Shown here: in pieces, positions 22,365-58,672 of the stretch
How positions within the stretch are numbered: the first letter of the stretch is position 1
Layout: every line of letters begins with the position of its first letter
DNA from: Candidatus Heimdallarchaeota archaeon
GTDB lineage: Archaea > Asgardarchaeota > Heimdallarchaeia > Hodarchaeales > Hodarchaeaceae
Assembly: GCA_011364965.1 (NCBI GenBank)
Contig: RDOB01000001.1
Location: 160,001-224,000, forward strand
Direction of reading: 5' to 3'
Length of the DNA: 64,000 bases
Notes under the pieces: generated by a model
Told to the model about the DNA's origin: nothing
The model's input: only the letters and a program-made list of their open reading frames with translations
Database searches by the model: none
Position numbers and translations under genes: made by a program

Positions 22365-22718
22365 TCAATATAATTTTAAGCCAGAAGTGATTTCTTCAAC
22401 ACTTTTCATTGCATGAGGACCTATTCCTAATGCTGTAGTTGTATTAGGAGGAAGCTGGGTTCGACCTGCATCATCTATTTTCACGATAATAACACCAGTA
22501 GTCTTGAGCTTAGTTTCTATTTCTAATAACTCCTCTTCAGTATCCACTCCCAATATAATCTTTCTTTGACCTGTTCTCCACCACAAAACGAAATCGTTAT
22601 GCTTTTCTTGATAAGCCTTCATAGCTGCTGCTACAGCTGCATGAGAAGCTTGAGCTGCAGCTTTTCCTTTGGACATTCGAAGATCTTTCCGAAGAATTAT
22701 CACTTGCTTATATTCCGT
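22365..22718 (-). CDS. pth2: Peptidyl-tRNA hydrolase Pth2; probable ACG start at 22718
   Basis: EYKQVII.RKDL.MSKGK.AAQASHA and DAGRTQL....TALGIGP; GGAGG SD 7 nt upstream of the ACG. Confidence 0.92.
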   Translation of the reverse strand, partial: TEYKQVIILRKDLRMSKGKAAAQASHAAVAAAMKAYQEKHNDFVLWWRTGQRKIILGVDTEEELLEIETKLKTTGVIIVKIDDAGRTQLPPNTTTALGIGPHAMKSVEEITSGLKLY

Positions 22719-22763
22719 TAAGAGTCCTCCTTTAATTTCTAATTCAATGCGCTTGGAACTGAA

Positions 22764-22856
22764 TTTCTCAGTGAGGTACATGCACATCATCAATAAACTC
22801 TTATGGTGTCCAGACCAGAGTTTATCATCAGTATAGGTCAGTATTCATCATTGTGA
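22764..22856 (-). ncRNA. Box C/D guide RNA, predicted to target both strands of 16S rRNA helix 34
   Basis: C AUGAUGA (22851-45), D' CUGA (22831-28), 9-bp internal stem, C' UGAUGA (22792-87), D CUGA (22771-68); guides AUACUGACCUA and CAUGUACCUC are complementary to archaeal 16S consensus UAGGUCAGUAU and GAGGUGCAUG. Confidence 0.85.
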
Positions 22857-23012: not shown

Positions 23013-23534
23013 TTAATTTACCAGTTCTTCGCCTTTGGTTATTTTAATTTTGGAGGGTCTTGGAAATTTTGCTTTTCCTCTTCTTAAAGCGTCTTTCGCG
23101 ATATTCACATATTCGGGTTTTGTCCTAATAAAGAGAACTCTATCATTTTCATATACTCGAGCAGAGACACTAACTATTTTACCAAAAGATAATCGCATCC
23201 CATTTTGTATACGATCAGCACCTGCACCTGTCATCATCTTATTTTCTCTCATACGGTGATGGGGATAAACGCATACCCTATAATGATAGTTTTCTCTACC
23301 TATCTTCCTTGTAAGATATCTATTTACATGAATACGAGCTGCTTCAAGGGCATTGTGGGAAATTTGACATCTTTCTCTCATAAAAACTGAAACTTCAACA
23401 GGAAAATCGGTTCCAGGGGATCCGAAGTCAAAAGATTTAATCTTTGGTTCTGGTCCGCCTTTAATATACTTTTTTCTAGTATAAGCTGGTCTGTCGATGC
23501 GACTGTAACAATATGCTGGTCTTTTTCCCATCAA
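23013..23534 (-). CDS. rpl10e: Ribosomal protein uL16 (L10e)
   Basis: RPAYCY, ALEAARI and RENKMMTGAGADRIQNGMR.SFGK. Confidence 0.97.
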   Translation of the reverse strand: MMGKRPAYCYSRIDRPAYTRKKYIKGGPEPKIKSFDFGSPGTDFPVEVSVFMRERCQISHNALEAARIHVNRYLTRKIGRENYHYRVCVYPHHRMRENKMMTGAGADRIQNGMRLSFGKIVSVSARVYENDRVLFIRTKPEYVNIAKDALRRGKAKFPRPSKIKITKGEELVN

Positions 23535-31831: not shown

Positions 31832-31897
31832 ATGCCTCAGACCGCTCATCGATCATCAAATCTAGTTTCAGTTACCTAAAGGTATCATCATTGGCAT
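31832..31897 (-). ncRNA. Box C/D guide sRNA (compact archaeal type)
   Basis: AUGCC stem, C AUGAUGA, 13-nt guide, D' CUGA, C' UGAUGA, 12-nt guide, D CUGA, GGCAU. Confidence 0.85.
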
Positions 31898-58571: not shown

Positions 58572-58672
58572 GGCCGGTGTAGGATAAATTCAGACCCAAT
58601 AAGAGCTGAAATCAAACGGTAGTCTCGGCGGTTGTGGCCCGCCATGTCGGGGTTCGATTCCCCGCTCCGGCC
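58572..58672 (+). tRNA. tRNA-His(GTG) with D-loop intron (15/16; 58588-58616) and encoded G-1
   Basis: GGCGG-TTGTGGC-CCGCC; T arm CGGGG-TTCGATT-CCCCG; G-1/C73; relaxed BHB GGAT-AAA-TTCAG/CTGAA-ATCA-AAC. Confidence 0.88.

Follow-up and report, generated by a model that had tools for sequence, protein, structure and literature searches.

A Hodarchaeales dual-guide box C/D RNA for helix 34 of 16S rRNA with an expanded internal hairpin and a probable accessory antisense loop

The minus strand of a 64,000-nucleotide (nt) stretch of the genome of a Candidatus Heimdallarchaeota archaeon of the order Hodarchaeales (contig RDOB01000001.1, positions 160,001 to 224,000; hereafter the window) carries at 22851..22768 an element that, on the evidence of its sequence and conservation, is a dual-guide box C/D small RNA (sRNA). 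The explanation that we favor, with good confidence, is that this RNA is a methylation guide belonging to an old archaeal family of double guides for helix 34 (h34) of 16S ribosomal RNA (rRNA), and that it carries in addition a Hodarchaeales hairpin whose loop most likely pairs with 16S. The new part is the architecture, an expanded hairpin between boxes D' and C', and not the guide pair.

Results

A conserved dual-guide box C/D sRNA

Read on the minus strand, the 84-nt core of the sRNA begins with box C (AUGAUGA, 22851..22845), whose UGAUG is invariant or nearly so across 20 species. The D' guide AUACUGACCUAUA (22844..22832) follows, with 13 nt here and 12 nt in most relatives and with C22836 as the fifth base counted from D', and leads to box D' (CUGA, 22831..22828), which is invariant in the 20 species. 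After a UG dinucleotide comes the first strand of a 9-bp inverted repeat, AUAAACUCU (22825..22817), which pairs with AGAGUUUAU (22801..22793) to form the internal helix. The 15-nt apical loop (22816..22802) contains the sequence GGACACC at 22811..22805, our proposed accessory antisense element. The C' region UGAUGAUGU (22792..22784), the 12-nt D guide GCAUGUACCUCA (22783..22772, with C22776 as the fifth base counted from D) and box D (CUGA, 22771..22768, conserved in the 20 species) complete the RNA.

A first-pass annotation of this DNA had described four perfect boxes. Boxes C, D' and D are as described, and the C' region does contain a perfect UGAUGA (22792..22787), which overlaps a UGAUGU (22789..22784). 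In the alignment, however, all 19 relatives have the UGAUGU register alone, which leaves a D guide of the canonical 12 nt. The working C' box of the window RNA is probably the imperfect UGAUGU rather than the perfect UGAUGA three bases upstream, because only the former is kept in the relatives, together with a 12-nt guide.

The terminal C and D boxes, the internal D' and C' boxes and guides of 12-13 and 12 nt are those of an archaeal box C/D sRNA, as is complementarity to rRNA of at least 9 bp with the target at the fifth position from D or D', which was found on four congeneric 16S genes. In its dimensions the RNA departs from the compact archaeal form, which measures 50-70 nt and has a D'-C' spacer of 3-9 nt folded as a kink-loop (K-loop): the core has 84 nt, and the spacer has 35-38 nt. 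This long spacer is an architectural departure and no ground for excluding the RNA from the class.

The earlier prediction of a dual-guide C/D RNA is further borne out by conservation. A single copy is present in 20 of the 21 genomes of the same Hodarchaeales genus, as detected by BLAST and by a covariance model (R1), and the one genome without a match is a 70%-complete assembly. Congeneric copies share 73-81% nucleotide identity, and the boxes, their spacing and both guide cores are invariant across the 20 aligned species. The internal stem, originally noted as a perfect 9-bp pairing, is well corroborated: seven of its nine pairs show compensatory change, with both sides altered, and 91.8% of the stem cells in the alignment are paired, compared with 23-45% when the partner strand is slid. 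The box arrangement is also rare by chance. A strict four-box pattern has just two matches in the 2.97-Mb genome, and a relaxed C/D pattern has 12, compared with one in shuffled sequence. Genes for the protein partners fibrillarin (269 bits), Nop5 (218 bits) and L7Ae (91 bits) are present, all above Pfam cut-offs, with nop5 adjacent to the fibrillarin gene. The folding z-score of the whole RNA is 0.44, no better than that of shuffled sequences; scores near those of shuffles are usual for C/D RNAs, and the value weighs neither for nor against the element. An Rfam search of the window at gathering scores reported nothing on the element.

Predicted targets on both strands of helix 34

Targets were assigned on four 16S genes from congeners. 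The D' guide forms 11 Watson-Crick pairs and one G.U pair with the congeneric 16S segment GGUAGGUCAGUAU; the duplex of the D guide with GAGGUGCAUG has 9-10 Watson-Crick pairs and a U.G pair at its center. By the +5 rule, the predicted target of the D' guide is the first G of UAGGUC, equivalent to Escherichia coli 1197 (aligned to rrsH), and that of the D guide is the G directly 5' of UGCAUGG, equivalent to E. coli 1051. These are the two nucleotides that the first-pass annotation had named, and the rule selects them on the four congeneric genes. In each of the four genes, both guides find their best 16S match in h34. The predicted sites stand on opposite strands of the helix, where 1197 adjoins A1196 and 1051 lies three bases before C1054.

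Several features of the data count against these assignments. No 16S rRNA gene was found in the organism's own assembly. The screen for rRNA targets covered the whole of congeneric 16S and the 5' two thirds of 23S, the 3' third being unassembled; the 23S sequence in the searched genomes consists of either these 5' two thirds (genome G016) or the last ~250 model positions only. The central U.G pair of the D duplex is also a fixed property, with the U (guide position 7) kept in all 20 species and the G present in all four congeneric 16S genes. A persistent wobble at the center of the duplex, together with a 3' third of 23S that lies outside the screened sequence, could mean that the D guide is not directed at 16S and that its target, reading GAGGUACAUG, is elsewhere, in the unassembled part of 23S, a transfer RNA (tRNA) or an mRNA, or that the D guide is a non-methylating chaperone arm. 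Such a perfect complement does occur in the organism's own genome, but at chance frequency (four times, including the antisense of the gene itself), and the single extended match lies inside a protein-coding open reading frame (ORF). Family members in other lineages have GCACC and form a perfect duplex at that same site in 16S, and guide duplexes are known to tolerate G.U pairs (PMC8817022). We consider it improbable that the D guide serves another target and retain E. coli-equivalent 1051 as its predicted site.

Two observations on the rRNA genes themselves arose from these searches. An isolated match of ~310 nt, covering the last ~250 model positions of archaeal 23S, is present in the organism's own genome (C12:515019-515329, minus strand), and similar isolated matches to the 23S end occur in two copies each in genomes G008 (C8) and G002 (C65); adjoining 23S was not detected. 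When these loci were rescanned with Rfam, the one in G002 (L034) was confirmed, and those in the organism's own genome (L033) and in G008 (L036) had no match at gathering-score level. They could be due to a fragmented or split 23S gene or to an assembly effect. In addition, one congeneric 16S gene (L006, G008 C9:1695-3919) spans 2225 nt, compared with the usual length of about 1475, which implies an insertion of ~750 nt in its 3' half, probably an intron.

Correspondence to eukaryotic methylation sites

Both predicted sites coincide exactly with ribose methylations of eukaryotes, Gm1428 and Gm1271 in yeast numbering. This identity rests on the Dictyostelium guides CD1 and CD37, because their pairings mark the same Gs and these are tabulated as the equivalents of yeast Gm1428 and Gm1271. 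In the published pairing scheme, CD1 (AACAGACCUGAU-CUGA) is directed at the first G of CAGGUC and CD37 (UUGCACCACU-CUGC) at G1266. Dictyostelium U1264 is the U of GUGG-U-GGUGCAUGG in the same scheme, and G1266 is hence the G right before UGCAUGG. Yeast Gm1271 and Gm1428 have both been assigned to h34, and their equivalents are Gm1328 and Gm1490 in human, Gm1272 and Gm1431 in Arabidopsis and Gm1266 and Gm1506 in Dictyostelium (PMC2794176; PMC8817022). The equivalence of the two sites to yeast Gm1428 (human Gm1490) and Gm1271 (human Gm1328), which the first-pass annotation had put forward, is thus upheld by the Dictyostelium pairings together with the published tables.

The snoRNAs (small nucleolar RNAs) that serve these sites in eukaryotes are snR56, SNORD25 (U25) and CD1 (Rfam DdR1) for the first and snR40, SNORD32A and CD37 for the second, and their target nucleotides are identical to those predicted for the sRNA. 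The resemblance extends to the 1428-type guide of Dictyostelium, which is also a D' guide, reading AACAGACCUGAU-CUGA in CD1 compared with AUACUGACCUAUA-CUGA in the window RNA; the consensus of Rfam DdR1 carries the same D' guide. Whereas eukaryotes serve the two sites with separate snoRNAs, a single dual-guide RNA covers both in the Hodarchaeales. Membership of the sRNA in the SNORD25/snR56 or SNORD32/snR40 families, for which a model search had been suggested, found no support: these Rfam models gave no match even at E ≤10, with either the whole RNA or each half. DdR1 scored 10.4 bits (E 3.6) against the sRNA, and the best Rfam match overall was to the archaeal sR3 family at 16.3 bits, for which the gathering score is 41. 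The sub-threshold Rfam matches covered the boxes alone. The similarity between the archaeal and eukaryotic guides is forced by the conserved rRNA and therefore does not demonstrate descent.

The guide pair in other archaea

The first-pass annotation had proposed a survey of Asgard and TACK genomes and had named a wide occurrence of the guide pair in non-Asgard archaea as an outcome that would lower its novelty. We scanned one genome per prokaryotic species for a C box followed by ACUGACCU and D' and read the sequence after each of the 69 loci obtained. The Hodarchaeales genus accounts for 18 loci, in the long-hairpin form. Five loci, in metagenome-assembled genomes (MAGs) labelled Baldr- or Odinarchaeota and in archaeal MAGs of the same sequence, are of a compact form with UAUGCACCUCUG-CUGA. 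Six further loci with the same second guide belong to TACK archaea (JZ-2 Thermoproteota, Nitrosocaldus, Nitrosopumilales, two Nitrososphaerota MAGs and archaeon HR01). About 15 loci in DPANN archaea and others have the D' guide alone or with a different partner guide, and about two dozen in Bacteria, with no C' or D boxes after the match, were taken as chance. The Asgard family f25 also has the compact guide pair, with GUGCACCACU-CUGA, and 14 metagenome contigs carry copies of the JZ-2 type. These occurrences, as read from sequence, indicate that the h34 guide pair is old and widespread in archaea, in both the TACK and the Asgard groups. The lesser novelty foreseen has to be accepted, and the pair is not peculiar to Asgard archaea, as the same pair is found in compact sRNAs of Thermoproteota, including Nitrososphaeria.

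Closer to the window, copies outside its own order were not found within its class in the genomes searched. In a search of 62 genomes from the remaining families of the class, covariance model R1 gave no match at E ≤0.01, and box-plus-guide patterns, some of them allowing up to two mismatches, detected only that of G019, a member of a sister family of the same order. Loci L157 and L158 were rejected as relatives for want of C' and D boxes, and L062-L064 and L087 were likewise rejected. A metagenome scan for long-spacer relatives of G019 returned members of the JZ-2 type only, with no second RNA of the G019 type.

The compact h34 double guides have the same order as the window RNA, with the C-D' guide directed at the 3' strand and the C'-D guide at the 5' strand of the helix, but their D'-C' spacer is 4-14 nt long and forms a mini-hairpin of 3-5 bp at most. 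They also differ among themselves in the register of the second guide, defined here as the number of bases between the D box and the A opposite the U of UGCAUGG. A five-base register, which selects E. coli 1051, is present in the window RNA, G019, f25, the JZ-2-type RNAs, HR01 and one Nitrososphaerota MAG (L149). A six-base register, which selects 1050, is present in the Baldr- and Odin-labelled MAGs, Nitrosocaldus, Nitrosopumilales and four published crenarchaeal and Methanopyrus RNAs.

For published sRNAs we derived the target positions from the sRNA sequences in the supplement of PMC4644070. Pyrobaculum calidifontis sR32, with the D guide UACUGACCUGCG, targets the 1197-type site, and Sulfolobus acidocaldarius sR6, P. 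calidifontis sR49, Methanopyrus sR120 and Ignicoccus sR310 have guides beginning AUGCACCUC (Dennis et al. 2015, PMC4644070 Additional file 1). By the +5 rule, sR32 selects the same G as the window D' guide; the 16S segment bound by the four AUGCACCUC guides is that of the window D guide, but the G they select is one nucleotide further 5'. These published h34 sRNAs share the ribonucleoprotein (RNP) type, the box layout and the 12-nt guides of the window RNA. They differ from it in that the two guides reside on different sRNAs, which are compact (about 50-65 nt) and without a long internal hairpin.

Two further gene arrangements were seen around the same D' guide. At six DPANN loci (Nanoarchaeia/Woesearchaeota; L095, L118, L121, L122, L129 and L152), a C box, the guide ACUGACCUAC and CUGA are followed within ~10 nt by sequence resembling a tRNA 3' half, with the T-arm GGTTCAAATCCC, which suggests that the guide may be fused to, or lie within, a split or intron-bearing tRNA gene. 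At five loci in Micrarchaeota, Iainarchaeum and other MAGs (L090, L092, L112, L123 and L140), the ACUGACCUAC guide unit stands directly upstream of an RNase P RNA-like GAGGAAGGUCCGCCC motif. This arrangement suggests a conserved pair of putative sRNA and RNase P RNA genes.

The internal hairpin and its conserved loop

In the Hodarchaeales genus, the 36-39 nt between D' and C' form a helix of 9-10 bp with a 15-nt loop. The loop sequence GGACACC is kept in 19 of the 20 species, with GGACAC invariant and the last C present in at least 90%, and the loop flanks vary. GGACACC is complementary to the sole GGUGUCC in congeneric 16S, at E. coli 1081-1087, which is identical in all four 16S genes and is located between the two guide targets, 30 nt 3' of the D target. 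For a random 7-mer, the probability of a complement in the 230-nt region around the targets is 0.013. With the flanks included, nine species have 8-11 contiguous matching nucleotides, and one reaches 13 bp if G.U pairs are included. Loop-16S duplex energies range from -12.9 to -21.1 kcal/mol, which is of the same order as those of the guide duplexes, and within 16S and the 5' two thirds of 23S the 1081-1087 segment is the best binding site for 13 of the 16 distinct loops. Based on this conservation and complementarity, the hairpin loop is probably an accessory antisense element that pairs with 16S.

The case for the loop pairing has its weaknesses. The match was found post hoc, and the 16S site is invariant within the genus and hence offers no rRNA variation in which covariation could be seen. 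In the window RNA only the 7-nt core of the loop pairs at the site, with an energy of -14.1 kcal/mol, and in the minimum-free-energy fold a local GGU/ACC pairing can sequester part of the loop motif. A bulged, G.U-rich pairing of the window loop at 16S ~230 is stronger (-21 kcal/mol); we rejected it as chance because the sequence is not conserved among congeneric 16S genes.

It is therefore worth weighing whether the hairpin of this same C/D guide is merely structural, providing a stable L7Ae kink-turn in a mesophile, with a loop kept for protein contact or processing and a coincidental match to 16S. By chance, 8.5% of 7-mers would match 16S at some position, and pairing of the window's own loop is limited to 7 bp; yet the match falls between the two targets, where the low probability given above applies, the flanks extend it in many species, and most of the distinct loops have their best site there. 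Family members of Nitrososphaerota, HR01 and the JZ-2 type have hairpins of 3-5 bp whose loops show no evident antisense match, which counts in favor of a structural role. The hairpin of G019, however, is a different one (GCGGA-CUUAAC-UCCGC), and its unrelated 6-nt loop CUUAAC, together with two stem bases, is complementary to 16S GUUAAGUC, an rRNA hairpin loop that adjoins the 1081-1087 site; this loop is known from one member. A second sRNA family of the Hodarchaeales genus bears on the question from both sides. It too has a covarying internal stem with a loop that is not conserved, so that a hairpin can evidently be retained without an antisense loop, but the loop there drifts freely, as the loop of a structural hairpin should, and therefore the conservation of GGACACC is not a by-product of having a hairpin. 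We regard a purely structural hairpin as rather unlikely and prefer the interpretation that the loop pairs with 16S.

The second family, which is conserved across 12 of the 21 congeners, is represented in the organism's own genome at C11:135025-135092 on the plus strand (L161, L165). The D' guide there, CGGUUUUACCGG, pairs in the 530 loop of 16S and selects the equivalent of U531, which we take to be yeast Um578. Another C/D candidate, at C16:17657-17739 on the plus strand (L162), has a 37-nt D'-C' spacer with the hairpin CCCAAU/AUUGGG and a D guide that forms 10 bp with congeneric 23S near position 866 of the G016 fragment. Long internal hairpins thus seem to be recurrent in Hodarchaeales sRNAs.

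Extra base-pairing elements are known from yeast, where most of them are sited in the interval from D' to C' (van Nues et al. 2011, PMC3116282). Yeast snR70 has a stem in this interval whose loop serves as the element; methylation is stimulated by it, above all where the guide duplex is weak (PMC3116282). The window RNA resembles this type in having a stem between D' and C' and a conserved loop complementary to rRNA near the methylation site. Its GGACACC has the properties of an extra base-pairing sequence, being conserved outside the guides, not adjoining D or D', and complementary to rRNA that flanks the site. Whereas stimulation by the yeast element was shown by experiment, a role for the Hodarchaeales element is deduced from conservation and complementarity. 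In the literature read we met no archaeal example of extra base-pairing, although no search was aimed at one, and we found no archaeal report of a long internal helix with a conserved antisense loop.

Genomic context and other RNA genes of the window

The gene order on the minus strand is rpl10e, sRNA, pth2 and then an eRF1-family gene. The upstream neighbor (23013..23534, minus strand) encodes ribosomal protein L10e/uL16 (Pfam PF00252, E 2.9e-27), and the downstream neighbor (22365..22712, minus strand) encodes the peptidyl-tRNA hydrolase Pth2 (Pfam PF01981, E 1.5e-37, residues 28-142). The longest pth2 ORF (22365..22793) overlaps the 3' third of the sRNA and runs in frame through the C' box and the D guide, and pth2 lies downstream in at least three relatives. 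The element could on these grounds be taken for a pth2 5' leader or N-terminal extension with chance box-like motifs and not for a separate RNA gene. The PTH2 domain begins only at residue 28, however, and by our reading of the alignment a stop closes the overlapping frame in one relative (L017). Sequence beyond box D is quite different in most relatives, whereas the RNA is conserved, and its conservation is of an RNA-like kind, with invariant boxes and guides and a covarying stem. We give a pth2 extension almost no credence and treat the element as an RNA gene.

Elsewhere in the window, a second perfect four-box C/D sRNA, of the compact archaeal type, is located at 31837-31891 on the minus strand, with the layout ATGATGA, 13 nt, CTGA, 8 nt, TTGATGA, 12 nt, CTGA. 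Its guides gave no convincing match in congeneric 16S or in partial 23S. The sole above-threshold Rfam match of the window is a tRNA of 100 nt at 58573-58672 on the plus strand (34.9 bits), and the length of the match points to an intron-containing gene.

Discussion

We propose that the sRNA would assemble with L7Ae, Nop5 and fibrillarin and that its two guides would act on opposite strands of h34. The D' guide would pair at E. coli-equivalent positions ~1194-1205 and direct 2'-O-methylation of G1197 (yeast G1428, beside A1196), and the D guide would pair at ~1048-1057 and direct methylation of G1051 (yeast G1271, 3 nt 5' of C1054). Both guide duplexes would exclude formation of h34, and the RNP would therefore have to act on nascent 16S, probably serving there as a folding chaperone for the head domain as well. 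A clamp of both h34 strands by one RNA, as envisaged in the first-pass annotation, is plausible; the idea is not new, as archaeal dual-guide sRNAs are already established as chaperones (PMC7994747).

The Hodarchaeales-specific part of the proposal concerns the hairpin. Its helix of 9-10 bp would close the C'/D' motif as a true kink-turn instead of a K-loop. The apical loop, consisting of GGACACC and its variable flanks, most likely pairs with 16S 1081-1087 and beyond, at the h35-h37 junction, and this pairing would aid docking of the D duplex, which is rather weak, A/U-rich and contains a wobble. The logic of such an accessory pairing is that of the extra base-pairing of yeast and human snoRNAs.

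The practical value of the finding is modest: annotation gains a new, well-defined RNA family, and in vitro work gains a simple test system. For the biology of the ribosome, the two h34 methylations are among the few rRNA ribose methylations common to yeast, human, plant and amoeba, and they flank the decoding residues C1054 and A1196. That both sites trace to a single double guide in the TACK and Asgard groups gives the origin of part of the eukaryotic snoRNA repertoire a concrete and testable form. The organism's own genome, that of a mesophile, contains only about ten C/D candidates, and the C/D sRNAs that it retains seem to be aimed at sites conserved in eukaryotes, as exemplified by the h34 RNA and the guide for the U531 equivalent.

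A bolder evolutionary reading, which we offer tentatively and hold to be possible but less than even in its prospects, is that an ancient compact h34 double guide became snoRNA-like in the Hodarchaeales by acquiring a long helix that closes C'/D' and an apical loop that is a third antisense element, directed at 16S 1081-1093, and that the ancestral two-guide RNA, shared by the TACK and Asgard groups, was the forerunner that eukaryotes split into U25/snR56 and U32/snR40. The Hodarchaeales are the archaeal order placed closest to eukaryotes by published phylogenies. If this reading is true, extra base-pairing of the kind found in yeast and human snoRNAs would have its first archaeal example in the window RNA, and, should the loop work as proposed, accessory pairing would predate eukaryotes.

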